Assembly: GCA_048571215.1 (NCBI GenBank)
Contig: CP182352.1
Span: 160,001 to 224,000, forward strand
Direction: 5' to 3'
Source: Halarcobacter sp.
Lineage (GTDB): Bacteria; Campylobacterota; Campylobacteria; Campylobacterales; Arcobacteraceae
DNA length: 64,000 nucleotides
This document shows positions 2,779 through 22,249 of this stretch, in pieces. The first letter of the stretch is position 1; every line of letters starts with the position of its first letter. The notes below the pieces were generated by a model. That model worked only from the letters and a program-made list of their open reading frames with translations. It had not been told where the DNA came from and ran no database searches. Position numbers and translations under genes: made by a program.

Positions 2779-2808
2779 AAATTTAAGAGGAGTTTTCCTC
2801 TTAAATTT
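2779..2808. terminator. Bidirectional intrinsic terminator
   Basis: AAATTTAAGAGGA-GTTT-TCCTCTTAAATTT perfect hairpin between convergent genes. Confidence 0.75.
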
Positions 2809-4854: not shown

Positions 4855-4951
4855 TATATCTCCAAATAGTGTTTCCAATGGAAACTTTTTGTGAAATTAT
4901 ACAGAAATTTTCTTAATTTTATATATTTATAAGAAATAGTATTTTGAAAAT

Positions 4952-5000: not shown

Positions 5001-6392
5001 TTATAAAGAAGGGGATTTAATAACCATCATTTTTTGGTTTTGCATTTCTCTCATAGAATCAGCGATACCACCAAGACCAAGACCAGAAGTTTTAGCACCA
5101 CCAAAAGGCATCCAGTCAACTCTAAATGCAGTATGGTCATTTACCATAATAGCTGTACCATTTAATCTTTTAACTGCTTTAAGTGCAGTGTCAATATTTT
5201 TAGTAAATACAGCAGCTTGGAATGAAACATCTAATTGATTCGCTCTGTCAATAGCTTCATCTAAAGTTTTATATGAATAAACAACAACAACTGGACCAAA
5301 AATCTCTTTTTGAGAAATGATAGCATCATCAGCTGGGTTTACAATTACAGTTGGTTCATAACAAGAATCAGAGATTCTTTTACCACCAATTAAAATTTTA
5401 CCACCCTTAGTAACAGCTTCATTAACCCACTCTTCAACTCTATTTACTTCATTGTGATTAATTAATGGACCAACTTCAGTTTTTGGGTCTAATTGATCAC
5501 CAACAACCAATTTAGAAGCATAGTCAGTTAATTTATTTGCAACTTCATCACAAATAGATTCATGTACAAAAATTCTTTGAACAGATACACAAACTTGACC
5601 AGCATGATAAAAACCACCTTTTCCTAAATCAGGAATCATAGCATCTATATCTGCATCTGGCTCAACAATAACAGGAGCAACCCCACCATGCTCTAAAGCA
5701 GATCTAGTTCCAGGAGATGCTTTTGAGTTTAAGTACCAACCAACAGGTCCTGAACCAATAAATGTAAAGAATGCAGTTTTAGGAGATGTTACAAGTAGCT
5801 CTCCCCCTTTTCTGTCACAAACAACAGCTTGTGCCCAACCATCAGGAAGTCCAGCTTCTTTTAAAATCTCAACTAATCTAATAGCTGACATAGGAGTTTG
5901 AGTAGCTGGTCTAATAATTACAGGACAACCAACAGCAATAGCAGGTATTACTTGGTGAACTGCAAGGTTAAAAGGATGGTTAAATGCAGAGATTGCTGCA
6001 ACTACACCAATAGGTTCTTTCATTGTGTAAGCCATTCTGTTTACACTAGTAGGTGTGTGACCCATAGCAATCTCATGACCCTCTTGTACACTTAATTGCT
6101 CAATAGCAATCTTAATACCATTGATAGCTCTTAGAACTTCAACCTTAGAATCCATATATGGTTTACCACCTTCACTAGCACAAAGAATAGTTAACTCTTC
6201 TACTTGTGAAGACATAATTTTCATAACATTTTCTAAAATCTCAACTCTTTTAAATTTTGGAATCCAGTTATCAACATCTAAAAACTTCTCATAAGCTAAA
6301 TCTATTGTAGATTCTACTTCTTCAAAACTACTAAATGGTACTTCTCCTACTACTTTCCCATCATATGGTGATGTTACTTCTATTTTACTCAT
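5001..6392 (-). CDS. Aldehyde dehydrogenase, copy 1 (ALDH21/RL0313-like; probable NADP-dependent succinic semialdehyde dehydrogenase)
   Basis: 'AFNHPFNL', 'FIGSG', catalytic Glu in LEHGG, catalytic Cys in GQVCVS, 'EIFGPV', 'MPFGG'. Substrate is inferred from context. Confidence 0.9.
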   Translation of the reverse strand: MSKIEVTSPYDGKVVGEVPFSSFEEVESTIDLAYEKFLDVDNWIPKFKRVEILENVMKIMSSQVEELTILCASEGGKPYMDSKVEVLRAINGIKIAIEQLSVQEGHEIAMGHTPTSVNRMAYTMKEPIGVVAAISAFNHPFNLAVHQVIPAIAVGCPVIIRPATQTPMSAIRLVEILKEAGLPDGWAQAVVCDRKGGELLVTSPKTAFFTFIGSGPVGWYLNSKASPGTRSALEHGGVAPVIVEPDADIDAMIPDLGKGGFYHAGQVCVSVQRIFVHESICDEVANKLTDYASKLVVGDQLDPKTEVGPLINHNEVNRVEEWVNEAVTKGGKILIGGKRISDSCYEPTVIVNPADDAIISQKEIFGPVVVVYSYKTLDEAIDRANQLDVSFQAAVFTKNIDTALKAVKRLNGTAIMVNDHTAFRVDWMPFGGAKTSGLGLGGIADSMREMQNQKMMVIKSPSL

Positions 6393-6399
6393 GTTTTTT
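5001..6399. repeat. Direct repeat A, copy 1 (partner 18896-20294)
   Basis: Identical translation. By eye only three nucleotide differences were found, all synonymous (5010, 5013, 5916). Flanks are unrelated. Confidence 0.97.
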
Positions 6400-6423: not shown

Positions 6424-6951
6424 TTAATTTTGTGTAAAATCTTTTGCATTAAAAGATAAATCATCTGAAGACAATCGATATAGTTTCAGGTTATCTACAC
6501 AATAAGCACCTTGTTTTTCATAAAACTTCATTGCTTTATTATTCCAATCTAAACATGCCCATTCTAAATATTCACACCCTTTATCAATAGAATATTTTGC
6601 AAGATATTGAAACATGATTTTTCCTAAACCCTTACCTCTTACACACTCATCTATAAAAAATGCATCGATATATAGTCCTTTTCGACCAGAAAATGCAGAA
6701 CTCTTTTGATGAAAATATATAAAAGAGCATATCTTGTTTTTATAAATACCAAAAACGGCTTCTCCTAATTTTTCATCTAACAATCTTTTTATACGTTTTG
6801 GTGTTGCTGTTATAGCATCTTCCATTTTTTGAAAAGTTCCAAGTTTTTTCATGAAAGTTACAATTAATTGTGCATCGTCACTTGTTGCCATTCTTAAACT
6901 ATAATCTGAATTTTTGCTAGATATTAAATTTTCCTTTACTTTTTCAGACAT
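6424..6951 (-). CDS. GNAT N-acetyltransferase, diamine/SSAT-like
   Basis: 'GLYIDAFFIDECVRGKGLGK' acetyl-CoA motif; 'LEWACLDWNNKAMKFYEKQGA'. Confidence 0.85.
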   Translation of the reverse strand: MSEKVKENLISSKNSDYSLRMATSDDAQLIVTFMKKLGTFQKMEDAITATPKRIKRLLDEKLGEAVFGIYKNKICSFIYFHQKSSAFSGRKGLYIDAFFIDECVRGKGLGKIMFQYLAKYSIDKGCEYLEWACLDWNNKAMKFYEKQGAYCVDNLKLYRLSSDDLSFNAKDFTQN

Positions 6952-6964
6952 AATATTGGTTTGT

Positions 6965-7408
6965 TTATTGATAATCAGTTAATCTTATTACAAATACTGA
7001 ACATGCAGCATGTCTCATAACACGCTCTGAAGTACTACTTATAAAGTAACTTCCAAGTCCCGGTTTTGTTGCCATCATAACAATAGCATCAGCCTTAATT
7101 CTTCTAGCTTCTTCTAGAATCTCCCTATGTGCTGAACCATCTCTTATATTAAAAGTGATTTTATCTTCAGGCAAGGAGTGCTTTTTTGCGATTTTTTTCA
7201 ACTCAATAAATGCATCATGATTGTAGTGTTTCTCATTTTCATCATCAAGAATTGGGTAAACAGAGCCATGAGCTCTATTTTCATTAACATATAATAAAGA
7301 TAATTTTCCATCTTCATTATTTAGTACTTCTAATGCTCCTGCAAAAAGTTTTTCGTGATTATCTATATAATCTAAATGCAATGGAACTAAAATATTTTTG
7401 AACATCAT
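6965..7408 (-). CDS. Universal stress protein (UspA family)
   Basis: 'FKNILVPL', 'GSAHREILEEA...ADAIVM', 'STSERVMRHAACSVFVIR'. Confidence 0.9.
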   Translation of the reverse strand: MMFKNILVPLHLDYIDNHEKLFAGALEVLNNEDGKLSLLYVNENRAHGSVYPILDDENEKHYNHDAFIELKKIAKKHSLPEDKITFNIRDGSAHREILEEARRIKADAIVMMATKPGLGSYFISSTSERVMRHAACSVFVIRLTDYQ

Positions 7409-7416
7409 TATGCCTT

Positions 7417-8550
7417 TCACATTGATTTATCAAGTATTTTTTCTACTATTGTAGAATTTACGATTTTATTTTCACCAAATTCGCTAAATCCATGTTTTTC
7501 TAATAATGGAATTACCTTTTGTTTTACTTCTTTATCATCAGTATATTTTGAAAGTTTAAGTTCCACACCTAATGATTTATATAAGTCTTCAATTTTTTCT
7601 ATTATCTCATCTTCATCTTGGGTATCAATATTAAATACATTTTTTCCCAATTGAATAAGTTTGTCTCTTTTATGTTCTTTTAATACTCTTAAAAGATTTG
7701 GTTGTATAATTGCCAAAGTTCTAGCATGGTCAATTCCATATAGTCCACTAAGCTCATGACCTATATAGTGTGTAGCCCAATCTTGAGGTACACCTAAACA
7801 AATAAGACCATTTAGTGCTTGGTTTGCCAACCACATTAGGTTTGCATACCAAAGATCATTTTTATTATCTATTGTTGATGCTAATTCAACTAGTGCTCTT
7901 AATATCCCTTCACTATAGTTATCTTGTGCTAACATACCATGTTTATATGTAAGATATTGTTCACAGGTGTGAATAAAAGAATCAATAAGTCCATTTACTA
8001 TTTGTCTTTCATCTAAACTTTTTAGTACGTCTGGGTCCAATATAGCAAATTTTGGGAAAGAGTGTTCTGATCTAAAAAATCTTTTTTCTTTTGTCTGTTT
8101 TTTTGTTATAACAGAACCTGTATTTGATTCACTCCCTGTTGCTGCTAGTGTTAAAACAGCTCCAATTGGTAAGGCTTTTGTAGAGATATATTTACCTTCA
8201 AGCAAATCCCAAGGCTCTCCATCATAATAAAAAGCATTAGCTACATATTTTGCACCATCAATTACAGAACCTCCACCTACAGCTAATATATAATCAACAT
8301 TTTTCTCTTTTGCTAATTTTATTGCATTGTCAAGATTTTCTTTTGTAGGGTTTGGCTCTACTCCACTAAATTCATACCAAGTGTATCCTTCCAAAGAGTC
8401 TACAACTTGTTTGTATACACCATTTCTTTTTATACTTCCACCACCATATATAAATAATACCTTGTGGTTTTTTGGAATAAATGAAGATATAGTGTTGATT
8501 TTACCTTGCCCAAACTCGATTCGAGTAGGATTTAAATATGAAAATTCCAT
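7417..8550 (-). CDS. yqhD: Iron-containing, NADPH-dependent alcohol dehydrogenase/aldehyde reductase (YqhD-like)
   Basis: 'NPTRIEFGQG', 'YGGGS', 'GGGSVIDGAK', 'GVPQDWATHYIGHELSGLYGIDHARTL'. Confidence 0.88.
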   Translation of the reverse strand: MEFSYLNPTRIEFGQGKINTISSFIPKNHKVLFIYGGGSIKRNGVYKQVVDSLEGYTWYEFSGVEPNPTKENLDNAIKLAKEKNVDYILAVGGGSVIDGAKYVANAFYYDGEPWDLLEGKYISTKALPIGAVLTLAATGSESNTGSVITKKQTKEKRFFRSEHSFPKFAILDPDVLKSLDERQIVNGLIDSFIHTCEQYLTYKHGMLAQDNYSEGILRALVELASTIDNKNDLWYANLMWLANQALNGLICLGVPQDWATHYIGHELSGLYGIDHARTLAIIQPNLLRVLKEHKRDKLIQLGKNVFNIDTQDEDEIIEKIEDLYKSLGVELKLSKYTDDKEVKQKVIPLLEKHGFSEFGENKIVNSTIVEKILDKSM

Positions 8551-8636
8551 TTTTTTCCTTCTTTAGAAATTTTTAAATTTAGTGATTATCCAGAAAGGTT
8601 TGTACTACCTTTCTGAAAGGGAGTTTATAAATCCCT

Positions 8637-9959
8637 TTATCCCATAACTTTATCTGGTAACCAAAGAACAATCTCTGGGAAAACCATACAGATAATTAGA
8701 ACTGTTAAATTTACTAAAATAAATGGAGTAACTGATTTATAAATCTCTCCCATTCCTATTTCTGGTGGTGCAATACCTTTTAAATAAAATAGTGCAAAAC
8801 CATAAGGTGGAGTTTGTACTGCTATTAAAATATTTATAATCATTAAAACACCAAACCAAATTGGGTCATATCCTAAACTAACAGCAATTGGTGTAAATAG
8901 TGGTGCACACATTAGTACAATAATAAACTCATCAATAATAAATCCAAGGAAAAGCATAATAAATTGAAACATAATAATAATCATAATTGGAGGTAGGTCT
9001 AATCCATGAGTAAAATCTGCAATCATCCCTTGAATTCCCATTAATAAATGGAAGTTACTAAATACAGAAGCACCTAAAATAATCCACATGGCAACACTTA
9101 CTAAGATACCTGTTTGTAGTCCAACTGTTCGCATCATTTCTAATTTGAATCGTTTAAAGAATATTGCAAGTAAAATTGCACCAACAACACCTAAGGCACC
9201 AGATTCAGTTGGAGTTGCTATTCCACTAATAATACTACCTAGAACAACAAAGATTAAACCAATTGAAAGAAAACCATCTCTAAATACTCTAAGTTTTTCT
9301 TTCCCTTTTAGTTTAGGTAAACCTGGATTGTTTTCACTAAGTAGTGGAGCATTTTCAGGTTTGATAATTGAACTAATTATAATATATGTAACAAGTAGAA
9401 TTACAGTAATAAGTGCAGGTACCATAGCTCCTAAGAACATTCTACCTACTGAATTTTGAGTTGAAGCTGCAAACATAATCATTGGAATACTTGGTGGGAT
9501 TAAAATACCTAAAGCTCCACCAGCCATAATAGTTCCAAGAGCTAGTCTTTTATTATATCCAGCATCTAGCATTGGTTTTAAGGCAATACTTCCTGAGCTC
9601 ATAATACCAGCACCAATGATACCAACCATTGCACCAATCATCGAACAAATAAAAACTACACTGATAGCTAAAGAACCTCTAATCTTACCAATCATCATTT
9701 GACTTGCTTTAAACATTGCATCACCAATACCTGAGTGGGTTAAGAGTTGTCCCATATATATGTAAAGGGGAATAGCCAGTAAAATAAAACTAAAAAAAGT
9801 TGATTCAACAGTAGTTGGAATTACATTAAAAATTCCCTCTCCCCAAGTGAAATAACCTATTAACATAGCAATTCCACCTAAAGCTAAACCTACAGGAGCA
9901 CCTAGTGCAAAGAATATTAAAATACATAATAATAATACCCCTGTTAATAATTCAATACT
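8637..9959 (-). CDS. dctM: TRAP transporter large permease
   Basis: 'LLAIPLYIYMG', 'GALGILIPPSIPMI', 'GIATPTESGA', 'QTPPYG'. Start MSIELL follows AAGGAG. Confidence 0.93.
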   Translation of the reverse strand, partial: SIELLTGVLLLCILIFFALGAPVGLALGGIAMLIGYFTWGEGIFNVIPTTVESTFFSFILLAIPLYIYMGQLLTHSGIGDAMFKASQMMIGKIRGSLAISVVFICSMIGAMVGIIGAGIMSSGSIALKPMLDAGYNKRLALGTIMAGGALGILIPPSIPMIMFAASTQNSVGRMFLGAMVPALITVILLVTYIIISSIIKPENAPLLSENNPGLPKLKGKEKLRVFRDGFLSIGLIFVVLGSIISGIATPTESGALGVVGAILLAIFFKRFKLEMMRTVGLQTGILVSVAMWIILGASVFSNFHLLMGIQGMIADFTHGLDLPPIMIIIMFQFIMLFLGFIIDEFIIVLMCAPLFTPIAVSLGYDPIWFGVLMIINILIAVQTPPYGFALFYLKGIAPPEIGMGEIYKSVTPFILVNLTVLIICMVFPEIVLWLPDKVMG

Positions 9960-10494
9960 CATTCTTAGACTCCTTTTCAATTAAAGGTGAACCAGTAAAT
10001 AAATGGTAAGCCTCTTCAATAATATCTCTTAATAATTGTATTGCAAAAGTAACACTTGCTACCCCTAACATTACCCAAAAGTGCCACATTACAGGTGCCC
10101 ATTCGCTTTGACGTCTATAATCAAACTCTACTGCTTCATTAAATTTTGTAATACTCATATAAAAAATGATTATTAGAAAAAATATTCCCAATGAAAAAGA
10201 GATTATGTTAAAGATATTTTTTACTTTAGGCGAAACTGATAAATATAGAATATCAACATTAATATGAGCTTTCCTTTGTTGAGCATAAGCTCCCCCTAAA
10301 GCAGCAATATAGCCAAATAGAAATAGTGATAAATCGTATGCCCAAATTGTAGGGGCATCAAATATATATCTAGCAACCACTTCAAAAGCAACAATAAAAG
10401 CAAGGATGGGCATCAAATATGATGTCCCTTTCCCTAACCACATGACAATTGTATCAACTGTCTTGCAAAATAATTGTAAGAATTTTTTAAACAT
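9952..10494 (-). CDS. dctQ: TRAP transporter small permease
   Basis: 4 TM; 'EVVARYIFDAPTIWAYD', 'HINVD'; lies between dctP and dctM. Confidence 0.92.
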   Translation of the reverse strand: MFKKFLQLFCKTVDTIVMWLGKGTSYLMPILAFIVAFEVVARYIFDAPTIWAYDLSLFLFGYIAALGGAYAQQRKAHINVDILYLSVSPKVKNIFNIISFSLGIFFLIIIFYMSITKFNEAVEFDYRRQSEWAPVMWHFWVMLGVASVTFAIQLLRDIIEEAYHLFTGSPLIEKESKNEY

Positions 10495-10511
10495 GGTATA
10501 ACCTGTCAAAA

Positions 10512-11622
10512 TTCAATTATTTAGATTGTTTTCTTAATACATCAATAAGTTGCTTGCTGTATTTATCTTTAGAAGAGTACTCGTCCCAAAGACCAGCCCC
10601 AGCATCATGCCAAGCTTTTTTATCAGCTTCAGAAGGTTCAGGAGACCATTTTAAACCTTTAGCTTCCATTTGAGCAACAGCTTCTTTTTCCCATTTTCTA
10701 GACATAGTTAATTGATTTTTTGCATGTGCAACAGTTGCATCATATACACCTTTTTTCTGTGCATCAGTTAGTTTATTCCATGCAGCTCTATTAACAACAA
10801 TAGGTAAAACTTGAGCACCAGCTAAAGGAAGTCTATACATATATTTAGCAACTTCAACATGGTTTCCATCTCTGTGGTCAATCATATTAGAACCAATAGA
10901 ACCATCAATAACACCAGTAGCTAAACTAGTATAGATTTCACTCCAAGCTAATGAAACAGGAGAAGCACCTAAGTTTCTTAAGAATTTACCATATGCACCA
11001 GGAGCTCTAATTTTTAAACCTTGGAAATCAGCAATAGATTTGATAGGTTTTTTAGTAATAATATAAACTGGTGGTTGAATATAAGGCTCTAACCATACTA
11101 AACCTTGAGAACCATAAGCTTTTTTAAGGATTTTGTCCCAACCATCTTCGTGGAAAAGTTTGTATAATTTATCAGTATCAGCAGTACCACCTGGTAAACC
11201 AATTTCAACTACACCAGCAGGTAATTCACCAGCATGCATAGATTGAAAAGGAGCAGCCATAGTAATAAGCCCAGATTTAGTAGCACCTAATAAACCAGAA
11301 GTTCCAACACCTTCACCTGAAAATAATACTTGAACTTTAATTTCACCATTTGTATTTTTTTCAATATCTTTTGCTAATTGTTGATATAAATCACCAAATG
11401 CAGTTCCTCTTCCGTATAGGTTTGCGAACCTCCAATTTTGAGCAGCTGAAGCTGTCTCTACAATTGACATTACCCCTAATAGTACAACTAATACAGTCAT
11501 TACTATATTTCTTTTCATGTTAGTAAACATATATATTCTCCCTTATTTTATTTTTCTTTGACCATTTGTAAATAGCTTTATCAAAATATCTCATTTGATT
11601 TTTCTCTTTATGGATATTTTAG
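10512..11622. repeat. Direct repeat B, copy 1 (partner 12944-14055)
   Basis: About 1.11 kb covering the whole dctP plus about 92 nt of leader. The only difference seen is one T in a run (GCTTTATC vs GCTTTTATC). Confidence 0.97.
10517..11530 (-). CDS. dctP: TRAP substrate-binding protein, downstream copy
   Basis: Signal peptide; 'KKPIKSIADFQGLKIRAPG', 'EIYTSLATGVIDG'. Confidence 0.93.
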   Translation of the reverse strand: MFTNMKRNIVMTVLVVLLGVMSIVETASAAQNWRFANLYGRGTAFGDLYQQLAKDIEKNTNGEIKVQVLFSGEGVGTSGLLGATKSGLITMAAPFQSMHAGELPAGVVEIGLPGGTADTDKLYKLFHEDGWDKILKKAYGSQGLVWLEPYIQPPVYIITKKPIKSIADFQGLKIRAPGAYGKFLRNLGASPVSLAWSEIYTSLATGVIDGSIGSNMIDHRDGNHVEVAKYMYRLPLAGAQVLPIVVNRAAWNKLTDAQKKGVYDATVAHAKNQLTMSRKWEKEAVAQMEAKGLKWSPEPSEADKKAWHDAGAGLWDEYSSKDKYSKQLIDVLRKQSK

Positions 11623-12923
11623 TTTTTTACTAGATCGACAAATAATTCTTGGAATTTATCTAGACCTTCATTAGCTATTTCATCACTAATAGTTAATGCT
11701 GGTAAAAATCTAATTACATTGCTATTAAAACCACAAGATAATAAGATTAATCCATATTCAGAAGCTTTACCAACAATTGCTTTTGTTAGTTCAGCATTTG
11801 GTTTTTCAATATCCCCATCTTTCATTAGTTCTAAAGCAATCATTGCACCCTTATTTCTAACATCCAAAATCAATTCTGGAAATTGTGATTTAAGTTCGTT
11901 TAATCTTTTATTAAAAATATCACCAATTTGATTTGATCTATTGATTAAATCCTCTTCTTCAATAATATCAAGTACTTTTAATGCCGCAGCACAAGCAACT
12001 GGTGAACCACCATAAGTTCCACCAAGTCCACCTGGAACTGGAGAATCCATTATTTCAGCTTTTCCAACTACTGCAGATAGAGGATAACCTCCTGCAATAC
12101 CTTTTGCCATTGTCATTAAATCAGGTTCGATTCCAGAATATTCAATATTAAACATTTTCCCAGTTCTTCCAAATCCTGTTTGAATCTCGTCAATAATTAA
12201 TACAATTCCATTTTCATCACATATTCTTCTAAGTTCTTGTAACAGTTCTACTGGAGTTTGGTAAAATCCACCTTCCCCTTGAATAGGTTCAACAATAATT
12301 GCAGCAACATCACTTGGTAAAATATCAACTTTAAATAGGTTTTTTAAGGCAGTTAAAGTATCTTTTACAGAAGTTCCATTAAATTCAGTTGGATAAGGTA
12401 GATGATAAATTTCACCTGGGAATGGTCCAAATCCAATTTTATATGGAGCAATTTTCCCTGTTAATCCCATAGTTAAATTAGTTCTTCCATGAAATGCACC
12501 ATTAAATGCAATTACACCTCTTCTTCCCGTATGAGCTCTAGCAATCTTTACACAGTTCTCAACAGCTTCTGCACCAGTTGTTACAAAAATAGCTTTTTTT
12601 TCAGTTTCACCTGGAGCAATCTTAGTTAGTTTTTCAGCCAACTCAACTGCAACTTCATATGGATTAACCATAACACAAGTATGACTAAAGTTTTCTATTT
12701 GTGTTTTTACAGCTTCAACAATTTTAGGATGACTATGTCCTGTATTACATACAGCAATACCTGTACCAAAATCAATAAATCTATTACCTTCTACATCCCA
12801 AATTTCAGAATTTTTTGCTTTTTCAACAAAAGATTGATACGCATTTCCTTGACCTCTTGCAAAAACTTTATTTTTTCTGTTTTGAAGGTTTTGATTATTT
12901 TTTACTTGAATTTTTTTGTTCAT
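11619..12923 (-). CDS. gabT: 4-aminobutyrate--2-oxoglutarate aminotransferase (class III PLP)
   Basis: 'DFGTGIAVCNTGHSHP', 'TGAEAVEN', 'EPIQGEGGF', 'DEIQTGFGRTG', PLP-Lys in 'MAKGIAGG', 'GGLGGTYGGSP'. Confidence 0.9.
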   Translation of the reverse strand: MNKKIQVKNNQNLQNRKNKVFARGQGNAYQSFVEKAKNSEIWDVEGNRFIDFGTGIAVCNTGHSHPKIVEAVKTQIENFSHTCVMVNPYEVAVELAEKLTKIAPGETEKKAIFVTTGAEAVENCVKIARAHTGRRGVIAFNGAFHGRTNLTMGLTGKIAPYKIGFGPFPGEIYHLPYPTEFNGTSVKDTLTALKNLFKVDILPSDVAAIIVEPIQGEGGFYQTPVELLQELRRICDENGIVLIIDEIQTGFGRTGKMFNIEYSGIEPDLMTMAKGIAGGYPLSAVVGKAEIMDSPVPGGLGGTYGGSPVACAAALKVLDIIEEEDLINRSNQIGDIFNKRLNELKSQFPELILDVRNKGAMIALELMKDGDIEKPNAELTKAIVGKASEYGLILLSCGFNSNVIRFLPALTISDEIANEGLDKFQELFVDLVKN

Positions 12924-12943
12924 TGATTAAATCCTTATATAAT

Positions 12944-14055
12944 TTCAATTATTTAGATTGTTTTCTTAATACATCAATAAGTTGCTTGCTGTATTTATCT
13001 TTAGAAGAGTACTCGTCCCAAAGACCAGCCCCAGCATCATGCCAAGCTTTTTTATCAGCTTCAGAAGGTTCAGGAGACCATTTTAAACCTTTAGCTTCCA
13101 TTTGAGCAACAGCTTCTTTTTCCCATTTTCTAGACATAGTTAATTGATTTTTTGCATGTGCAACAGTTGCATCATATACACCTTTTTTCTGTGCATCAGT
13201 TAGTTTATTCCATGCAGCTCTATTAACAACAATAGGTAAAACTTGAGCACCAGCTAAAGGAAGTCTATACATATATTTAGCAACTTCAACATGGTTTCCA
13301 TCTCTGTGGTCAATCATATTAGAACCAATAGAACCATCAATAACACCAGTAGCTAAACTAGTATAGATTTCACTCCAAGCTAATGAAACAGGAGAAGCAC
13401 CTAAGTTTCTTAAGAATTTACCATATGCACCAGGAGCTCTAATTTTTAAACCTTGGAAATCAGCAATAGATTTGATAGGTTTTTTAGTAATAATATAAAC
13501 TGGTGGTTGAATATAAGGCTCTAACCATACTAAACCTTGAGAACCATAAGCTTTTTTAAGGATTTTGTCCCAACCATCTTCGTGGAAAAGTTTGTATAAT
13601 TTATCAGTATCAGCAGTACCACCTGGTAAACCAATTTCAACTACACCAGCAGGTAATTCACCAGCATGCATAGATTGAAAAGGAGCAGCCATAGTAATAA
13701 GCCCAGATTTAGTAGCACCTAATAAACCAGAAGTTCCAACACCTTCACCTGAAAATAATACTTGAACTTTAATTTCACCATTTGTATTTTTTTCAATATC
13801 TTTTGCTAATTGTTGATATAAATCACCAAATGCAGTTCCTCTTCCGTATAGGTTTGCGAACCTCCAATTTTGAGCAGCTGAAGCTGTCTCTACAATTGAC
13901 ATTACCCCTAATAGTACAACTAATACAGTCATTACTATATTTCTTTTCATGTTAGTAAACATATATATTCTCCCTTATTTTATTTTTCTTTGACCATTTG
14001 TAAATAGCTTTTATCAAAATATCTCATTTGATTTTTCTCTTTATGGATATTTTAG
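12944..14055. repeat. Direct repeat B, copy 2
   Basis: Matches 10512-11622, from TTCAATTATTTAG to GGATATTTTAG. Confidence 0.97.
12949..13962 (-). CDS. dctP: TRAP substrate-binding protein, upstream copy (identical protein)
   Basis: Translation identical to 10517-11530. Confidence 0.93.
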   Translation of the reverse strand: MFTNMKRNIVMTVLVVLLGVMSIVETASAAQNWRFANLYGRGTAFGDLYQQLAKDIEKNTNGEIKVQVLFSGEGVGTSGLLGATKSGLITMAAPFQSMHAGELPAGVVEIGLPGGTADTDKLYKLFHEDGWDKILKKAYGSQGLVWLEPYIQPPVYIITKKPIKSIADFQGLKIRAPGAYGKFLRNLGASPVSLAWSEIYTSLATGVIDGSIGSNMIDHRDGNHVEVAKYMYRLPLAGAQVLPIVVNRAAWNKLTDAQKKGVYDATVAHAKNQLTMSRKWEKEAVAQMEAKGLKWSPEPSEADKKAWHDAGAGLWDEYSSKDKYSKQLIDVLRKQSK

Positions 14056-14201
14056 ATAATTAATTATTACGGAAAAGAGTAGTGAAAAAGTAACCATAAT
14101 TAGATTTTTTAAGATATTTATATATATAAAAATATCTCTATTTATTGATATTAAAATATAGTATTTTGTAGTTATATATCGATTATTGAAGAGTTTTTAT
14201 T

Positions 14202-16688
14202 TTAATTTATAATGGGGATATATATGGAGAATCTTACTCCCTGCTCGATATTTTTTACACTTAATTGTCCATTCATATTTTGTTCTATAATAATTTTACT
14301 CATATATAAACCAAGTCCAGTACCATTATAACTATCTTTAGTTGTAAAATAAGGTTCAAACACTTTATTAATGATTGATTCATTTATTCCACCTGCATTA
14401 TCTGAAATCATTATCTTTATATGTGTATCGATTAGTTTAGTTTTTATTATAATATGAGGATTTTCAATATTTTTTTCTAGAAAGGAATCTTTTGAGTTTG
14501 TGATTATATTTAATAAAACCTGTGAAAGTTCACTTTCAAATCCATGGATTGATACATCATCCAAGATTTGGGTTTCAATTTTAATACTATTACTTTTAAA
14601 ACTATCATCTATTAGGAATATGGTTTGATTTATGGCATCTTTTATAGAAAAAGATCTTTTCTCTTTATTAGGTTTAAAAAAGTTTCTAAAATCATCAATA
14701 GTTTTTGACATTTTTTCTGTTAGGGCATTACTTAGAAGCATTTGTTTATCTAAATACTCTTTATCAAGTTTATTAAGTGAATAGCGTAGATGAATATTTT
14801 GTATAATTGTACTAAGAGCACTTAAAGGTTGTCTCCATTGATGGGCAATCATACTTATCATCTCACCCATTTCTGCTAGTTTTGATTGTTGGATTAATAG
14901 TTGTTCTTGTTTCTTTCTGTTATTAATCTCCTCTTTTATTCTAACATCAAGGGTATTATTTAAATGTTCAAGTTCATGAGTTTTATGTTGTAGTTTTTCA
15001 TTTGATAATTGAAGTTCATGGGTTCTCATTTGCACTTTTTTTTCTAAAGTGCTATTTAGCATCTCAATCTCCTCTTTTACTTTTGTTAATTTTCTTATAT
15101 ATCTTCGTTGAAGAATATATGTATATAAAATTAGTAATAAAATAAAAAATAGAAAACTTATAATACTCCAAAACAGTTTATAATCGATACTTTTTTCATA
15201 TTTTATTGTAACCCATTTATTAATGATTTTTTGTTTTGTTTCATCACTTATTGAGTCTATTACTTTTTCAAAGATATCTAGAAGTATTGGATCATCATTT
15301 CTTACCCCTATAGATAACTTCCATTGTTCATCAAACTTTCCTGAAATTTGTAAACTTCCATAAAACTCTTCTTGAAATGCATAAGCAACATTTAGGTGAG
15401 TTGTTACTTGACCAAATATCTCTCCCCTTTCAACTCTTTTTAAGCCATCCCTTAAATGATTTACATCTACTACTTGTAAATCGGGATATTTCCGTCTTAT
15501 TATTTCATTGTATGCGAAGTTTTTTTGAATACCAATTTTTTTATTTTTTAAAGCACTTAAATCACTAATAAAACTTACATTTCTTTTTGTAACTAAAACA
15601 AGAGGTGCTGTCACATATGGTTTAGTAAAATTCATATAACCTTGTCGTGATTTTATATCCATAACAAAAGATAAAACATCACATTTTCTATTTTTCATAT
15701 ATTCTAAGGATTGTGTCCAATCTTTTGTTTCTATGAGTTTTAAAGGGATGCCAATTTTCTTTTCAAAATCCTTCATATAGTCTGCTACAATACCAATATG
15801 TTTATGGTTTTCTATTTTTTCATAGGGCATCCAATCTGGATCTACACATAGGTTTATATGTGATTTTTTATCTAAATAATCTATCTCTTCTTTTGTAAAA
15901 ATTATGGGTAGATTTGCCAAATCTTTTAAAAACCATTTATCAAAAAGTTCTTTTTCCTCTTTTATTGAAATTGAGTTTAAACCTTTTTCTAAAATAGATT
16001 GAAGTAGTACTTTCTTTTTACTAGTAAAAATAAATAGTTTTGAATATTCAAAGCTTATTGAAGGTATTGCTTTTAGGTCAACAATTAGATTATCTTCTAA
16101 ATATTCTTGAATAATAATTGGTGAAGCTATTAAAGCATCAACCTCTCCTGCTAGTAGTTTTTGAACTGATTCTTTCATATTATTAGTTCTTTCCAATTTT
16201 ATATTGGCAAACCTTTTTTTTATATTAGGGATAGTTCCTAATTGGTCAACTATAGCAACTTTTTTATTTCTTAGATCATTAATTGAATTTATATTATTTT
16301 CTTCTTTTTTTACAAATAAAACTTTTTTTATTTGTAAAATTTCTGAAGAGTAAACTCCTAAATCATTTTCAACTTTTTTATTATTTATTATTGGGGCTAG
16401 ATCTATTCTACCTTCTTTGATTGCAAGAGGTATAGTAGCTTGTTTAAGTTTGATTGGTTTAATTCTTATATGATATTTTTTGGTGATAAGTTTTAATATA
16501 TCACTTACAAATCCATCTATTTTGTTATCTTTATTTATATATGTTAAAGGATAAAGTTCAGATACTCCAATTCTTACTTCATTGTTTTTTATCCAGTCCT
16601 CTTCTTCTTGAGTTAGAACTGTGGAGTCAGCATATAAGAGATTTAAAAATAAAAAAATAAAAAAAACAAACTTCAAAAATGACTCCAA
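14202..16688 (-). CDS. Sensor histidine kinase with two periplasmic solute-binding (family 3) domains
   Basis: Signal/TM, two PBP repeats ('CVDPDWMPYE'), TM, coiled coil, H-box 'IAHQWRQPL', 'SDNAGGI', 'FEPYFTTK', 'GTGLGL'. Confidence 0.9.
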   Translation of the reverse strand: MESFLKFVFFIFLFLNLLYADSTVLTQEEEDWIKNNEVRIGVSELYPLTYINKDNKIDGFVSDILKLITKKYHIRIKPIKLKQATIPLAIKEGRIDLAPIINNKKVENDLGVYSSEILQIKKVLFVKKEENNINSINDLRNKKVAIVDQLGTIPNIKKRFANIKLERTNNMKESVQKLLAGEVDALIASPIIIQEYLEDNLIVDLKAIPSISFEYSKLFIFTSKKKVLLQSILEKGLNSISIKEEKELFDKWFLKDLANLPIIFTKEEIDYLDKKSHINLCVDPDWMPYEKIENHKHIGIVADYMKDFEKKIGIPLKLIETKDWTQSLEYMKNRKCDVLSFVMDIKSRQGYMNFTKPYVTAPLVLVTKRNVSFISDLSALKNKKIGIQKNFAYNEIIRRKYPDLQVVDVNHLRDGLKRVERGEIFGQVTTHLNVAYAFQEEFYGSLQISGKFDEQWKLSIGVRNDDPILLDIFEKVIDSISDETKQKIINKWVTIKYEKSIDYKLFWSIISFLFFILLLILYTYILQRRYIRKLTKVKEEIEMLNSTLEKKVQMRTHELQLSNEKLQHKTHELEHLNNTLDVRIKEEINNRKKQEQLLIQQSKLAEMGEMISMIAHQWRQPLSALSTIIQNIHLRYSLNKLDKEYLDKQMLLSNALTEKMSKTIDDFRNFFKPNKEKRSFSIKDAINQTIFLIDDSFKSNSIKIETQILDDVSIHGFESELSQVLLNIITNSKDSFLEKNIENPHIIIKTKLIDTHIKIMISDNAGGINESIINKVFEPYFTTKDSYNGTGLGLYMSKIIIEQNMNGQLSVKNIEQGVRFSIYIPIIN

Positions 16689-16706
16689 AAATTTTTTATA
16701 AGTATA

Positions 16707-17897
16707 TCACACACAATCCAAGATTATAGAAAAACAAACACCTTCATTGATATTTTTTACATCTAGTTTCCCGTGATGATTGTTTTCTATAATAATTTTT
16801 GACATATAAAGACCAATTCCTGTACCATTTTTTTCTTTTTTTGTTGAAAAGTATGGTTCAAAAATGAAATTTAAATTATCTTTTTCAATTCCACCACCAT
16901 TATCATAAATTTCAATTTTTATACTATTTTCTAAATCTTGAGTTCTAATCTCGATTTTGGCATTTTCTATTTCTTTTTCTAAAAACTTATCTTGTGCATT
17001 TTTTAATATATTTATAAAAACATGAATAATTTCATTCTCATAAATATTAACTTTGTTTTCACTTTTTAAGTCTAATTCAATACTTATATCATTTGTTTGT
17101 AAATCTTTTTCTATAATTTTTAAACTATTTTTAATAGATTTTTCAATACTTGTATTTGTTATTATTTTATCTGTTTTATAAAAATTTCTAAAGTCATCTA
17201 TTGTTGTAGTTAGATTTTGTACATAAAACTCTATCTCATCAAGCTTATTAGTGAAAAACTCTGATTGTTCTATCCTACCTTCTTGAGTATTTAAGTCAAA
17301 TTTTCCCGATAGCAATTTATTTTTTAGATTAAATGAAGCAGTCCCAATAGAAGATAAAGGTTGTCTCCATTGGTGAGCAATCATACTTATCATCTCACCC
17401 ATTGCAGCAAATCTTGATTGAGCTTCCATAACTTTTTGTTTCTCTTCATTTTTTTGTATCTCTATTTCAAGTTTTTTATTTTTTTCTATTAACTCTTCTT
17501 TTAGCACTTTTGGTTCAATTGCTTTTATTAAACACTCTTCTAATTTATAGATATCAATAGGTTTTAATACATATGCACTTATATTTAATTCAATAGATTG
17601 CATAAGAAAGGTTGTTTCTTGATGAGCAGTTGTGATAATTATCGGGATATCTTTATCTATTTCTCTAATCTTTTTAATCATATCAAGACCATTTAATTTA
17701 GGCATTTTAATATCTGTTAAAATTAAATCAATTTTTTTATCACCAGCTTTAAAAATTGACAAACCCTCTTGTCCATCTTTAGCACATATTACATCTATTT
17801 CAAAAAGATTTAGGGTTTCTGTTATCCCTTTTTGAATTATTAATTCATCTTCTGCATAAAGTACAGTTATATTCTTTAATATTTGGCTATTTATCAT
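16707..17897 (-). CDS. Cytoplasmic hybrid receiver-histidine kinase
   Basis: N-terminal receiver ('YAEDE', 'LTDIKMP', 'KP') then 'IAHQWRQPL' and HATPase motifs; no TM segment. Confidence 0.9.
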   Translation of the reverse strand: MINSQILKNITVLYAEDELIIQKGITETLNLFEIDVICAKDGQEGLSIFKAGDKKIDLILTDIKMPKLNGLDMIKKIREIDKDIPIIITTAHQETTFLMQSIELNISAYVLKPIDIYKLEECLIKAIEPKVLKEELIEKNKKLEIEIQKNEEKQKVMEAQSRFAAMGEMISMIAHQWRQPLSSIGTASFNLKNKLLSGKFDLNTQEGRIEQSEFFTNKLDEIEFYVQNLTTTIDDFRNFYKTDKIITNTSIEKSIKNSLKIIEKDLQTNDISIELDLKSENKVNIYENEIIHVFINILKNAQDKFLEKEIENAKIEIRTQDLENSIKIEIYDNGGGIEKDNLNFIFEPYFSTKKEKNGTGIGLYMSKIIIENNHHGKLDVKNINEGVCFSIILDCV

Positions 17898-18081
17898 AAG
17901 AACTCTTTTTGTTTTTTTGAGTAGTATATCACTAAATAGTAGTCAAATAATCTCATAGTTATAGTATATAATAGAATATTTGATTATAAGGTTAATATTT
18001 TTGAACTATTATTTTATACATTTTAAAAGAAATAAAATGCTAATATAATGCCCAAGAACATCCTAATTTAGAAGGTTTTTA

Positions 18082-18816
18082 ATGGATTATGGCTTATTAA
18101 AAAAATATACTCGAAATTTAAATATTCTTTTTGTTGAAGATGATACAGATTTTAGAAAAGAGTTTTCAGAATTACTTCAAGATATTTTTCCAAAAGTCTC
18201 TACAGCTGTTGATGGGTTAGATGCACTTAATAAATACAAAGAGTTTTATGAGCAAACAAATACCTATTATGATTTAATTATTTCAGATATAAAAATGCCA
18301 AATTGTGATGGAGTTGAACTAATTGATTCCATATATAAAATCAAAGATGACCAATTAGTTATAATTTTATCTGCTAGAAATGAGTTTGATTATTTGTTGC
18401 CTTTAGTTAATCTAGGAATACATCAATTTTTCACAAAACCTATTGATTATTCAACTTTTTTAGATGATATGTTTAAGCTATGTAATCAGATTTATCATAA
18501 TAAATTAAATAATGATAATGATATTGTAAGAGTTAATGAGTCTTTAATTTGGGATAAAAAGAAAAGAAAACTAATACGAGATGATAAAATAATAGATTTA
18601 ACTAAAAATGAGATTCGTTTTGTTGAAACAATATTAAATAATAATGGCAAAATATGTACTGTTGATAATCTTATAGATATTATTTGGTTTGAAGAGTTTG
18701 ATTTGAATCCAGATATTTCACATCTAAAAAGTCTTATTTATCGTTTGAGAAAAAAAGTACCAGATTTACATATAAAAAATATTTATGGTATGGGATATAC
18801 TCACGATTCTAAGTAA
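18082..18816 (+). CDS. OmpR-family response regulator
   Basis: 'FVEDD', 'ISDIKMP', 'TKP'; winged helix 'IDLTKNE...LIYRLRKK...IYGMGY'. Confidence 0.9.
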   Translation: MDYGLLKKYTRNLNILFVEDDTDFRKEFSELLQDIFPKVSTAVDGLDALNKYKEFYEQTNTYYDLIISDIKMPNCDGVELIDSIYKIKDDQLVIILSARNEFDYLLPLVNLGIHQFFTKPIDYSTFLDDMFKLCNQIYHNKLNNDNDIVRVNESLIWDKKKRKLIRDDKIIDLTKNEIRFVETILNNNGKICTVDNLIDIIWFEEFDLNPDISHLKSLIYRLRKKVPDLHIKNIYGMGYTHDSK

Positions 18817-18895: not shown

Positions 18896-20287
18896 TTATA
18901 AAGATGGAGATTTAATAACCATCATTTTTTGGTTTTGCATTTCTCTCATAGAATCAGCGATACCACCAAGACCAAGACCAGAAGTTTTAGCACCACCAAA
19001 AGGCATCCAGTCAACTCTAAATGCAGTATGGTCATTTACCATAATAGCTGTACCATTTAATCTTTTAACTGCTTTAAGTGCAGTGTCAATATTTTTAGTA
19101 AATACAGCAGCTTGGAATGAAACATCTAATTGATTCGCTCTGTCAATAGCTTCATCTAAAGTTTTATATGAATAAACAACAACAACTGGACCAAAAATCT
19201 CTTTTTGAGAAATGATAGCATCATCAGCTGGGTTTACAATTACAGTTGGTTCATAACAAGAATCAGAGATTCTTTTACCACCAATTAAAATTTTACCACC
19301 CTTAGTAACAGCTTCATTAACCCACTCTTCAACTCTATTTACTTCATTGTGATTAATTAATGGACCAACTTCAGTTTTTGGGTCTAATTGATCACCAACA
19401 ACCAATTTAGAAGCATAGTCAGTTAATTTATTTGCAACTTCATCACAAATAGATTCATGTACAAAAATTCTTTGAACAGATACACAAACTTGACCAGCAT
19501 GATAAAAACCACCTTTTCCTAAATCAGGAATCATAGCATCTATATCTGCATCTGGCTCAACAATAACAGGAGCAACCCCACCATGCTCTAAAGCAGATCT
19601 AGTTCCAGGAGATGCTTTTGAGTTTAAGTACCAACCAACAGGTCCTGAACCAATAAATGTAAAGAATGCAGTTTTAGGAGATGTTACAAGTAGCTCTCCC
19701 CCTTTTCTGTCACAAACAACAGCTTGTGCCCAACCATCAGGAAGTCCAGCTTCTTTTAAAATCTCAACTAATCTAATAGCTGACATAGGAGTTTGAGTAG
19801 CTGGTCTAATGATTACAGGACAACCAACAGCAATAGCAGGTATTACTTGGTGAACTGCAAGGTTAAAAGGATGGTTAAATGCAGAGATTGCTGCAACTAC
19901 ACCAATAGGTTCTTTCATTGTGTAAGCCATTCTGTTTACACTAGTAGGTGTGTGACCCATAGCAATCTCATGACCCTCTTGTACACTTAATTGCTCAATA
20001 GCAATCTTAATACCATTGATAGCTCTTAGAACTTCAACCTTAGAATCCATATATGGTTTACCACCTTCACTAGCACAAAGAATAGTTAACTCTTCTACTT
20101 GTGAAGACATAATTTTCATAACATTTTCTAAAATCTCAACTCTTTTAAATTTTGGAATCCAGTTATCAACATCTAAAAACTTCTCATAAGCTAAATCTAT
20201 TGTAGATTCTACTTCTTCAAAACTACTAAATGGTACTTCTCCTACTACTTTCCCATCATATGGTGATGTTACTTCTATTTTACTCAT
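18896..20287 (-). CDS. Aldehyde dehydrogenase, copy 2 (identical protein)
   Basis: Translation identical to 5001-6392; 30 bp downstream of the ThDP enzyme. Confidence 0.9.
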   Translation of the reverse strand: MSKIEVTSPYDGKVVGEVPFSSFEEVESTIDLAYEKFLDVDNWIPKFKRVEILENVMKIMSSQVEELTILCASEGGKPYMDSKVEVLRAINGIKIAIEQLSVQEGHEIAMGHTPTSVNRMAYTMKEPIGVVAAISAFNHPFNLAVHQVIPAIAVGCPVIIRPATQTPMSAIRLVEILKEAGLPDGWAQAVVCDRKGGELLVTSPKTAFFTFIGSGPVGWYLNSKASPGTRSALEHGGVAPVIVEPDADIDAMIPDLGKGGFYHAGQVCVSVQRIFVHESICDEVANKLTDYASKLVVGDQLDPKTEVGPLINHNEVNRVEEWVNEAVTKGGKILIGGKRISDSCYEPTVIVNPADDAIISQKEIFGPVVVVYSYKTLDEAIDRANQLDVSFQAAVFTKNIDTALKAVKRLNGTAIMVNDHTAFRVDWMPFGGAKTSGLGLGGIADSMREMQNQKMMVIKSPSL

Positions 20288-20294
20288 GTTTTTT
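18896..20294. repeat. Direct repeat A, copy 2
   Basis: Matches 5001-6399 at an offset of 13,895. Confidence 0.97.
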
Positions 20295-20317
20295 ATCTCT
20301 CCTTTTATTTTTTTGTA

Positions 20318-21967
20318 TTATAACATACACTCTTTTTTAGCTAATAATTCATTTAATATTGAGTGATTTAATGAATAATCAACTGCTAGGTCAATCAAGT
20401 GAACACCTTTACCGTTTACACACTCAGCTAATGTTTTTTCAAACTCTTCACAAGATTGAGGTCTATGTCCAGTTGCACCGTAACTTTCTGCATATTTAAC
20501 AAAATCTGGGTTTTCTAAGTCTAAACCATAAGTTTCAAATCCCATACCTGTTTGTTTCCATTTAATCATTCCATATGAGTTGTCATTTAAGATAACTACA
20601 GTTAAATCTAAACCTAATCTAACAGCTGTTTCCATCTCTTGTGAGTTCATCATAAATCCACCATCACCACAAACTGCAACAACTTTTGAATCTGGACATA
20701 CCATTTTTGCAGCCATACCAGAAGGTAGACCTGCACCCATAGTTGCAAGGGCATTGTCAAGTAATAATGTATTTGGTTGTGCACATCTATAGTTTCTTGC
20801 AAACCAGATTTTATATACACCATTATCAAGTGTTACAATATCTTTTTCATCTAAAGTTTGTCTAATAGTTCTTACTGCTTTTTGTGGTAAGATAGGAAAT
20901 CTTGTATCTCCAAAATATTTTGAAAGTCTAGTTCTAATCTCTTCTGCTAATCTAATATAATAATCAAAATCCCAGTGCTCTTGTTTTGAAATTGCATTTG
21001 TCATTTGAGTCATATTTTGAGCAATATCACCTATTACGTCCATTTGAGGGAAATAAGTATCATCTACTTCTGATGGGAAAAAGTTTATATGTAAAACTTT
21101 TGTTGCATCGGGATGGTTTTCCATAAAAAATGGTGGTTTTTCAATTACATCATGTCCAACATTGATGATTAAATCTGCTCTATCAATTGCACAATGAATA
21201 AAATCATCTTTTGATAATGCTGCTGTACTTAAACATAATTTGTGATTTTCATCAACAACCCCTTTACCCATTTGTGTAGAGAAAAATGGAATTCCTGTTT
21301 CATTTACAAAGTTAGTTAAGGCATCACCAATTCTACTTCTATTTGCACCTGCTCCAATTAGTAAAAGTGGTCTTTTTGCTTTTTCAATCATTTTTACCGC
21401 TTCTAATATTGCAGATTTTTCTGCATAAGGGTATCTAAATGAGTGAACTGGATAGATATTATCATCCACTTCCTCTTCTGCAATATCTTCAGGTAGTTCT
21501 ATATGAACAGCACCTGGTCTTTCTGTAGTAGCTATTTTAAATGCTTCTCTTACCATTGATGGTATATTGTTTCCATTTACAACTTGTTTAGCGTATTTAG
21601 TCATTGGTTTCATCATACCAACTATATCTACAATTTGAAATCTACCTTGTTTTGATTTTTTAATTGGTTTTTGACCAGTTATCATCATCATTGGCATACC
21701 ACCTAGTTGTGCATATGCTGCTGCTGTTGCAAAGTTAGTAGCCCCTGGCCCTAAAGTTGAAATACATACTCCAACTTTTCCTGTAAGTCTTCCATAAGTT
21801 GCAGCCATAAAACCTGCACCTTGTTCATGTCTTGTTAATATAAGTTTGATTTTCGATTGTCTTAAAGATTCTAAAAAGTCTAAGTTTTCTTCACCTGGAA
21901 TACCAAAAATATATTCAACACCTTCATTTTCTAATGCTTTTATAAATAAATCTGATGCTTTCATCAT
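20318..21967 (-). CDS. ThDP-dependent enzyme, acetolactate-synthase-large-subunit-like; candidate 2-oxoglutarate decarboxylase
   Basis: 'GVEYIFGIPGEENL', 'RHEQGAGFMA', 'TLGPGATN', ThDP motif 'GDGGFMM...NDNSYG'. No ilvH/ilvN small subunit adjacent. Confidence 0.85.
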   Translation of the reverse strand: MMKASDLFIKALENEGVEYIFGIPGEENLDFLESLRQSKIKLILTRHEQGAGFMAATYGRLTGKVGVCISTLGPGATNFATAAAYAQLGGMPMMMITGQKPIKKSKQGRFQIVDIVGMMKPMTKYAKQVVNGNNIPSMVREAFKIATTERPGAVHIELPEDIAEEEVDDNIYPVHSFRYPYAEKSAILEAVKMIEKAKRPLLLIGAGANRSRIGDALTNFVNETGIPFFSTQMGKGVVDENHKLCLSTAALSKDDFIHCAIDRADLIINVGHDVIEKPPFFMENHPDATKVLHINFFPSEVDDTYFPQMDVIGDIAQNMTQMTNAISKQEHWDFDYYIRLAEEIRTRLSKYFGDTRFPILPQKAVRTIRQTLDEKDIVTLDNGVYKIWFARNYRCAQPNTLLLDNALATMGAGLPSGMAAKMVCPDSKVVAVCGDGGFMMNSQEMETAVRLGLDLTVVILNDNSYGMIKWKQTGMGFETYGLDLENPDFVKYAESYGATGHRPQSCEEFEKTLAECVNGKGVHLIDLAVDYSLNHSILNELLAKKECML

Positions 21968-22249
21968 ATCTCCGTTTTTTTTTATTAATTTATACCGTAG
22001 TGTCCCACAAAATGTTTTAAATAGTTGTTAAAAATTATAAATAAATTAAATCAAAATGGTAAAATTTATACAAGTGCGAATAAACGACACATAGATTATT
22101 AAATATTATTTTAACTTTAAATAAATACATTAAAACTTTATATTATTTTAACCTAAGTTTACATATATTTTAATTGTAATTACAATATTGTTAGTTAAAT
22201 TTTTGTTTTTTTTGATACAATTATTTATAACTAGTTTAGGTTGAAACAT

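Follow-up and report, generated by a model that had tools for sequence, protein, structure and literature searches.

We have analysed a 64,000-nucleotide (nt) stretch of the genome of Halarcobacter sp. (assembly GCA_048571215.1, contig CP182352.1, positions 160,001 to 224,000; hereafter, the window), and find it likely from the sequence that two adjacent minus-strand genes encode a coenzyme A (CoA)-independent bypass in the tricarboxylic acid (TCA) cycle, of the OgdA/succinic semialdehyde dehydrogenase kind. The upstream gene encodes an enzyme, dependent on thiamin diphosphate (ThDP), which would decarboxylate 2-oxoglutarate to succinic semialdehyde (SSA); the downstream gene encodes an ALDH21-like aldehyde dehydrogenase (ALDH) that would oxidize the semialdehyde to succinate, probably with NADP+. 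The best support for this bypass is gene context. A preliminary description of the sequence had proposed a decarboxylase and SSA dehydrogenase (SSADH) bypass, and its core finds good support in the enzyme family, the tree and the site residues, as well as in the gene context and in the distribution; what must be amended is that the pair constitutes a second route here, and that it belongs neither to the cyanobacterial clade nor to the SsaD type. The pair consists of the following elements.

20318..21967, minus strand: ThDP-dependent enzyme of the PRK08322 family, "DNG" sub-branch; likely an OgdA-like 2-oxoglutarate decarboxylase, from its NF006187 profile match, identity and tree position.
20288..20317, minus strand: 30-bp spacer with a ribosome-binding-site-like sequence, AAGGAGAG, and no predicted hairpin; co-transcription is likely.
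18896..20287, minus strand: ALDH copy A, ALDH21-like; likely an SSA dehydrogenase, predicted to prefer NADP, from its match to PDB 5mz5 (E 3e-87) and its site residues.

The open reading frame (ORF) of the ThDP enzyme (21967 to 20318) specifies 549 amino acids (aa) and that of the ALDH (20287 to 18896) 463 aa, with a gap of exactly 30 bp between them. A second ATG at 21964, better spaced from a GGAG element, may be the true start of the ThDP enzyme; most relatives begin with MKAS or MNAS. The pair is flanked by a convergent response regulator gene and a divergent histidine kinase gene. Among the ORFs of the window, no small-subunit, ilv or alsD gene adjoins the ThDP enzyme gene, just as the preliminary description had stated for this acetolactate synthase-like enzyme encoded 30 bp upstream of an ALDH. 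The ALDH comes after the ThDP enzyme in this genome and in 28 of 29 relatives (29 of the 30 best loci); two of these loci are cut by contig ends, and the sole exception, L024, stops at a contig edge. The ALDH is also present in 80 of the 82 family (Arcobacteraceae) genomes that carry the ThDP enzyme, and we conclude from this adjacency and co-occurrence that the pairing is not due to chance. An RNA-library contig (run X5) covers both genes with ~98% identity, assembled contigs being of a kind that cannot demonstrate transcription.

The ThDP enzyme matched PRK08322 (NF006187, "acetolactate synthase large subunit") at 886.9 bits against a cut-off of 509, and this was the sole model above its cut-off among the 25 best NCBIfam models for the three-domain ThDP enzyme. 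Both AlsS models (444.3 bits against 510, and 396.7 against 551.1) and the IlvB/G/I model (403.8 against 538.35) scored it below their cut-offs, and it has GHDVIEK where acetohydroxyacid synthase has ARFDDR. Its named close homologues belong to Halarcobacter, Arcobacter, Poseidonibacter and Aliarcobacter, that of A. butzleri being 86% identical. As reference we used the KGD enzyme of Microcystis aeruginosa NIES-4325, which has been assayed and to which the NIES-843 enzyme is 97.8% identical, according to the available part of PMC10418658. The reference sequence (550 aa) was among 120 loci that a motif search returned from 8 of 64 parts of the named genomes, and it was recognized by organism title, length and 17 of 17 residue numbers published for the NIES-843 enzyme rather than by locus tag; it served for comparison in place of the Synechococcus PCC 7002 enzyme. 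It also matched PRK08322 best (877.8 bits), and 248 of 546 residues (45%) are identical between it and the window enzyme, which shares 31% identity with the IlvI of its own genome and 28-33% with three AlsS proteins.

Twelve of the 17 site residues listed in the accessible text of PMC10418658 are identical in the window enzyme, as are 3 of the 6 residues (K386, A408 and K471, from the set Q254, V382, K386, A408, L467 and K471) that contact docked 2-oxoglutarate in that source. Neither K386 nor K471 occurs in the AlsS rows (3) or the Ilv rows (7) of our alignment. E48, G434-D435-G436, M410, D462 and Y465 match the Microcystis enzyme as well (catalytic Glu, GDG..N motif, V-conformation Met). The AlsS motifs PGAK and QQ/LQT(M/L)G are missing; in place of PGAK, or of the PGG(A/S) of Ilv proteins, the window enzyme has PGEE, which puts Glu26 opposite Asp28 of yeast pyruvate decarboxylase (PDC) when the two are matched by motif. 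This Asp influences decarboxylase activity in the yeast enzyme, according to the part of PMC3534367 at hand. Three N-terminal motifs that the preliminary description had cited as a close match to OgdA are all present here and in the NIES-4325 enzyme, but they mark the whole PRK08322 family and not OgdA alone.

The preliminary description had also called for a phylogeny with OgdA, AlsS and Ilv proteins. In our IQ-TREE maximum-likelihood tree of 37 rows, drawn from a 155-row FastTree and with groups named after the first tree was seen, the PRK08322 proteins, the assayed enzyme among them, formed a single clade that excluded AlsS and Ilv, with support of 94/94, just short of our starred grade. 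The approximately unbiased (AU) test rejected a grouping of the DNG sub-branch with AlsS (p 0.0004). The affinity to OgdA was thereby borne out at the level of the wider clade but not within the assayed cyanobacterial clade, since the window enzyme lies in the DNG-motif sub-branch, outside the cyanobacterial enzymes. From the tree and AU tests, we infer that the enzyme works as OgdA does, although it stands outside the assayed clade.

The ALDH passed none of the 25 best NCBIfam ALDH models. Its best-matching PDB structures include three generic ALDH entries and moss ALDH21 (5mz5, E 3e-87), the moss protein ranking in the top three. In the portions of the two reports available, moss ALDH21 is an NADP-dependent SSA dehydrogenase (PMC7823795) and ALDH21 holds the SSA carboxylate by means of R121, R457 and Y296 (bioRxiv 10.64898/2026.01.13.699213). 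We observed that R88, Y262 and R424 of the window ALDH align with R121, Y296 and R457 of PpALDH21, a chain offset of 18 fitting all three published numbers, and that the catalytic residues N138, E234 and C268 are present. R88, R424 and Y262 are invariant in all 22 rows of this ALDH's branch and are not found in GabD or SsaD rows. The cofactor region reads RPATQTP, without Glu, and R194 aligns with an ALDH21 Arg; we take the RPATQTP site and this Arg to be cofactor-selecting. The SsaD family PRK09406 scored the protein at 227.6 bits (cut-off 730), as compared with 687 for a cyanobacterial partner, and its identity to partners at motif-selected, mostly cyanobacterial loci is only 25-32%. A tree in which the fusion protein P0137 served as ALDH21-like stand-in placed it as a distant ALDH21 relative on a separate bacterial branch.

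In the mechanism that we propose, Glu48 would activate ThDP, Lys386 and Lys471 would hold the carboxylates of the substrate, and an acid such as Glu26 may protonate the enamine and release the aldehyde. In the ALDH, Arg88, Tyr262 and Arg424 would bind the carboxylate of the semialdehyde and Cys268 would attack the aldehyde.

The complete genome (one contig, 100% complete) encodes oorDABC, porCDAB-like genes, a pyruvate oxidoreductase of the single-chain kind, ilvI together with the small subunit, sucCD and frdCAB. A check for oor or sucAB, suggested in the preliminary description, thus found oorDABC, and sucCD in addition, with no SucA match in this genome. As oorDABC and sucCD are both present, the pair is an additional route here, and it would run beside OorDABC and SucCD; branched-chain synthesis and the Oor plus SucCD route, being encoded separately, are independent of it.

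In an even sample of 251 genomes of the phylum, the enzyme family occurred in 12, namely this genome, 10 of the other 11 Arcobacteraceae and a single genome from beyond the Arcobacteraceae; in a sample of relatives, it was present in 2 of 24 other families. Among 121 Arcobacteraceae genomes, the enzyme was found in 82, sucC in 83, oorA in 112 and the ALDH in 83. Enzyme and sucC occurred together in 47, the enzyme only in 35, sucC only in 36, and neither in 3, where 12 would be expected if the two were independent. The decarboxylase was present in 35 of the 38 genomes without sucC and in 7 of the 9 without oorA. At the level of genera, 34 of the 35 genomes from the five genera without sucC had the enzyme, and 13 of the 13 from the five genera without the enzyme had sucC. 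Genomes lacking a full Oor plus Suc route had the enzyme in 42 of 47 cases, versus 40 of 74 for those having one. Gene presence follows loss of sucCD more than loss of Oor. In 20 of the 47 genomes having both, the enzyme gene and sucC are less than 7 kb apart, in two gene orders.

Four genomes of one genus (g73: G304, G320, G332 and G347; 93-98% complete) keep the pair, and neither a 2-oxoacid:ferredoxin oxidoreductase nor SucA was found in these four. The two loci read from this genus (L185 and L238) have the order sucCD-ogdA-aldh, and its genomes carry a ScoAB-type transferase. A fifth oorA-less genome tested, G326, has kept two 2-oxoacid:ferredoxin oxidoreductase subunits. No match to the acetate:succinate CoA-transferase family was found in the 121 family genomes; the ScoAB-type transferase occurs in 14 of the 121, and in 7 of the 38 that lack sucC. 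In relatives without sucCD or oor, the pair would be the only recognizable link between 2-oxoglutarate and succinate. Arcobacters tolerate oxygen whereas Oor is labile to it, and the near-restriction of the enzyme to this family, together with its retention in genomes without any ferredoxin oxidoreductase, fits the earlier idea of an O2-tolerant alternative to Oor; counterpoints are the stronger link to sucCD loss and the presence of the enzyme family in Methanosarcina and in a Thermodesulfobacteriota genome.

The window also holds an identical copy of the ALDH at the end of a second gene group. The features are as follows.

5001..6392, minus strand: ALDH copy B, identical protein with 3 nt differences, the last gene of a gabT/tripartite ATP-independent periplasmic (TRAP) transporter cassette.
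11619..12923, minus strand: gabT, 4-aminobutyrate:2-oxoglutarate aminotransferase (TIGR00700, 578.4 bits, cut-off 506.65); a second likely source of SSA.
6424..18816, strand unspecified: cassette between the ALDH copies, with a response regulator, two histidine kinases, two dctP genes, gabT, dctQ, dctM, Fe-alcohol dehydrogenase, universal stress protein (USP) and GNAT-like ORF.
2807..4878, minus strand: sucC-sucD, succinyl-CoA synthetase, syntenic with ALDH copy B, with a terminator-like hairpin (4982-4956) between.
22034..22063, minus strand: closest match to a sigma-70-like promoter upstream of the ThDP enzyme gene, such matches being at chance level for the region (106 sites found versus 102 expected).

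ALDH copies A and B are 99.8% identical, and copy B adjoins sucCD. Because one ALDH follows both a 4-aminobutyrate (GABA) aminotransferase and the ThDP enzyme, SSA is the obvious shared product, and copy B likely serves semialdehyde made by GabT. Glutamate decarboxylase, as a further source of SSA, was represented by only one weak PF00282 match. The window ALDH groups with the cassette ALDHs (support 96/92), and the core order of the cassette recurs in 11 other genomes. The duplication is found in 11 other assemblies too, and we reject an assembly artefact as its cause. In run X4, contigs lead out of unique DNA into copy B at each of its ends, the run being from the same study as the possible source sample and not independent of it. 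Two ALDH matches occur in 13 of the 121 family genomes, 12 of which hold the cassette between the copies. Within 11 of these 12, the copies are 99.5-100% identical (76.9% in the twelfth, G321), while copies differ by 4-24% between six species compared in genus g1, an apparent case of concerted evolution. In G309 the cassette lies ~900 kb from the decarboxylase gene, and in G364, which has no decarboxylase, it ends in a single ALDH.

The ALDH copies are 11-16 kb apart (L176-L181, L226-L231), and the repeat in the window (5001-6399 and 18896-20294) ends at gene borders. Recombination between the copies would excise 13.9 kb and restore the ogdA-aldh-sucCD order seen in G023. The layout fits integration of a circle via the ALDH gene, followed by gene conversion, as two putative steps; no clear recombination breakpoint was found in G321 in 200-nt windows. 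The dctP gene is doubled around gabT (10509-11622 and 12941-14055), with identical coding regions in the window; copies are 99-100% identical within G006, G012 and G016, and the gene is doubled also in G381 and G321. A second gabT (83% identical in nt) is located at G000:C1:3071956-3077393 (L196), behind genes for an agmatinase, a permease and an aminoaldehyde-type ALDH, likely a polyamine-to-GABA route without SSADH in the cluster. Elsewhere in the window (23857-28205) are two adjoining large GTPase-like ORFs of 672 and 777 aa, with no NCBIfam match, which we take to be dynamin-like by motif.

Distant homologues were examined at 17 PRK08322-like plasmid loci, hand-picked from 132 and 637 matching records. 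Seven of these have neighbours that make 2-oxoglutarate or use semialdehyde (gabD in 1, gdhA in 2, alcohol dehydrogenase with CoA-transferase/polyhydroxyalkanoate (PHA) synthase in 3, a glutamate-synthase family gene alone in 1), and five have this ALDH type, one of them also with a glutamate-synthase-family gene. P0123 and P0137 are single-chain fusions of both enzyme types. In the PRK08322 fusions P0123, P0137, P0140 and P0191, the added part is this ALDH type in a protein of 1016 aa, an ALDH21-like domain in one of 1019 aa, and an unassigned extension at the C- or N-terminus in those of 677 and 907 aa. At L215:4001-9587 (Sinorhizobium meliloti ml45 plasmid), L214 and L174, the PRK08322 gene is followed by alcohol dehydrogenase, phaE, phaC and CoA transferase genes, an arrangement suggestive of a natural pathway that would lead from 2-oxoglutarate through 4-hydroxybutyrate to a polyester. 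Two PRK08322-like paralogues occur in the gammaproteobacterial genome G301 (L062, L161); the partner of one of them is an ALDH that shares 57% identity with that of the window.

A number of observations weigh against a 2-oxoglutarate bypass. No assayed enzyme of the DNG sub-branch was found in the literature searched, subscription journals being outside its scope, and an exclusive clade of DNG and cyanobacterial enzymes was rejected by the AU test (p 0.0006); the proposal that the pairing is of the cyanobacterial OgdA plus SsaD type fails on this count, and also because the ALDH is ALDH21-like and lies downstream, not upstream. The window enzyme departs from the reference at five of the 17 site residues (Q254 to S, V382N, A384V, H385Y and L467M), three of them contacts to 2-oxoglutarate that derive from a docking model in the part of the source available. 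The PRK08322 cut-off is loose, since Bacillus subtilis passes it, presumably via AlsS. The ALDH is below all SSADH cut-offs (TIGR01780, 310.3 bits against 646.35; PRK11241, 245.5 against 828; PRK09407, 278.9 against 521), and its best PDB match, 8hap, is a generic ALDH that also has both arginines, which therefore mark anionic aldehydes and not SSA alone. GabT-family enzymes can also use 5-aminovalerate. Of the 121 family genomes, 36 have sucC and do without the enzyme, and these genomes are kin, so that the counts are patterns and p-values overstate. At five of the 17 plasmid loci, the neighbours are uninformative. A single ogdA-aldh-sucCD operon is unsupported: because hairpins lie between aldh and sucC in all 6 spacers folded, the link between these genes is one of synteny, not of shown co-transcription. 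Lastly, an AlsD domain is encoded 1.5 Mb away, in the N-terminal half of a 517-aa ORF (G000:C1:1676095-1677648, L206). This ORF has a hydrophobic N-terminus, the AlsD domain, and then a region of ~260 aa resembling a sensor domain; the five other AlsD proteins of the family are stand-alone.

Several of these points could be accommodated if the pair acted on another anionic 2-oxo acid, of which 2-oxoadipate, converted via glutarate semialdehyde to glutarate, is the most plausible, or if the enzyme were a broad dicarboxylic 2-oxo-acid decarboxylase with 2-oxoglutarate as side substrate. The separate sub-branch, the five pocket changes and the occurrence of the ALDH arginines in other anionic-aldehyde ALDHs suit such a substrate, and, because GabT and GabD-type enzymes often take C5 substrates, the cassette alone cannot separate C4 from C5. 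Yet succinate is indicated by a distribution complementary to that of sucCD, by synteny with these genes and by persistence of the pair where Oor and SucA are missing, and homologues of the same sub-branch stand beside gabD and 4-hydroxybutyrate/PHA-type genes; we regard the C5 alternative as rather unlikely. We give very little weight to a catabolic, FAD-independent AlsS-like acetolactate synthase, or another carboligase, with the ALDH as an incidental neighbour. The database label, the position of AlsS as nearest other family (444 bits) and the AlsD domain speak for it, but the enzyme is below the AlsS cut-offs, lacks the AlsS motifs and has its grouping with AlsS rejected by the AU test; AlsD occurs in 6 of the 121 family genomes, the other five all without this enzyme, the plasmid alsS loci read have budA adjacent (3 of 3), and IlvIH is encoded separately. 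A decarboxylase of pyruvate or branched-chain 2-oxo acids, the neutral aldehyde then being oxidized by the ALDH, would agree with the acidic residue at the PDC Asp28 position and with an ALDH partner, which suits any aldehyde-releasing decarboxylase. It is made quite improbable by the two arginines and the tyrosine in the ALDH channel that bind carboxylate in ALDH21, by the same ALDH ending the gabT operon, and by an ExaC-like ALDH encoded elsewhere; moreover, when the Microcystis NIES-843 enzyme was assayed with pyruvate and with four other 2-oxo acids, no aldehyde was formed, as far as the available text of the published account goes.

Taking the 2-oxoglutarate bypass together with the cassette, we tentatively suggest, as a possibility somewhat short of even, that most Arcobacteraceae run an oxidative TCA cycle via a CoA-free SSA hub, made up of the OgdA sub-branch together with a bacterial NADP dehydrogenase of the ALDH21 type. 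The hub would close the cycle in genera without sucCD, including Aliarcobacter butzleri, and would be the sole 2-oxoglutarate-oxidizing step in Oor-less species, with SucCD reversed to supply succinyl-CoA; a mobile GABA-uptake cassette would plug into it by recombining through the dehydrogenase gene, the copies then being kept identical by gene conversion. No succinyl-CoA synthetase is reported for the Arcobacter butzleri and A. thereius genomes in the available parts of PMC2147049 and PMC5495459, which leave the TCA step open; by these accounts, the Arcobacter gap has been on record since 2007. We found no paper assigning the pair in Arcobacter in the literature searched, whose scope did not extend to subscription journals and the supplements of Arcobacter papers. 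If the bypass is real, the pair closes this reported gap directly, a very large "acetolactate synthase" protein group is to be reassigned (8000 of the 8000 candidates that were scored had E<=1e-100, an unsorted mix), and ALDH21-type SSA dehydrogenases extend to bacteria.

The pathway itself is already known, a cyanobacterial bypass having reportedly been described by Zhang and Bryant in 2011, and the pair described here is likely a new version of it. In the available portions of PMC5160925 and PMC10418658, the OgdA/KGD plus SsaD bypass is known from Synechococcus PCC 7002 (A2770/A2771) and from Microcystis (MaKGD/MiKGD). The cyanobacterial OgdA/KGD and the window enzyme have in common PRK08322 as best family, 45% identity, near-identical length and numbering, the "acetolactate synthase" label and an adjacent ALDH. 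They differ in that the motif is DNG..K in the sub-branch of the window and DVGAHK in cyanobacterial OgdA, in that the ALDH21-like partner is downstream here whereas 61 of 79 motif-selected loci have an upstream ALDH, 25-32% identical to that of the window, and in that the host of the window, unlike the cyanobacterial OgdA/SsaD setting, also has Oor and SucCD. The ALDH resembles moss ALDH21 (PpALDH21A1, 5mz5) in its equivalents of R121, Y296 and R457 and in having no Glu at the cofactor-selecting position, but lies on a separate bacterial branch and has a decarboxylase partner. With AlsS/BudB, the nearest proteins outside the family (28-33% identity), the ThDP enzyme shares the three-domain ThDP fold and the absence of a regulatory subunit, but not the AlsS motifs or an adjacent budA/alsD. 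Finally, the cassette is like a GabT-GabD operon in its gabT, transporter and terminal ALDH; in contrast to that operon, its ALDH is not of the GabD family (245.5 versus 828 bits), and an identical copy is common to the decarboxylase operon.

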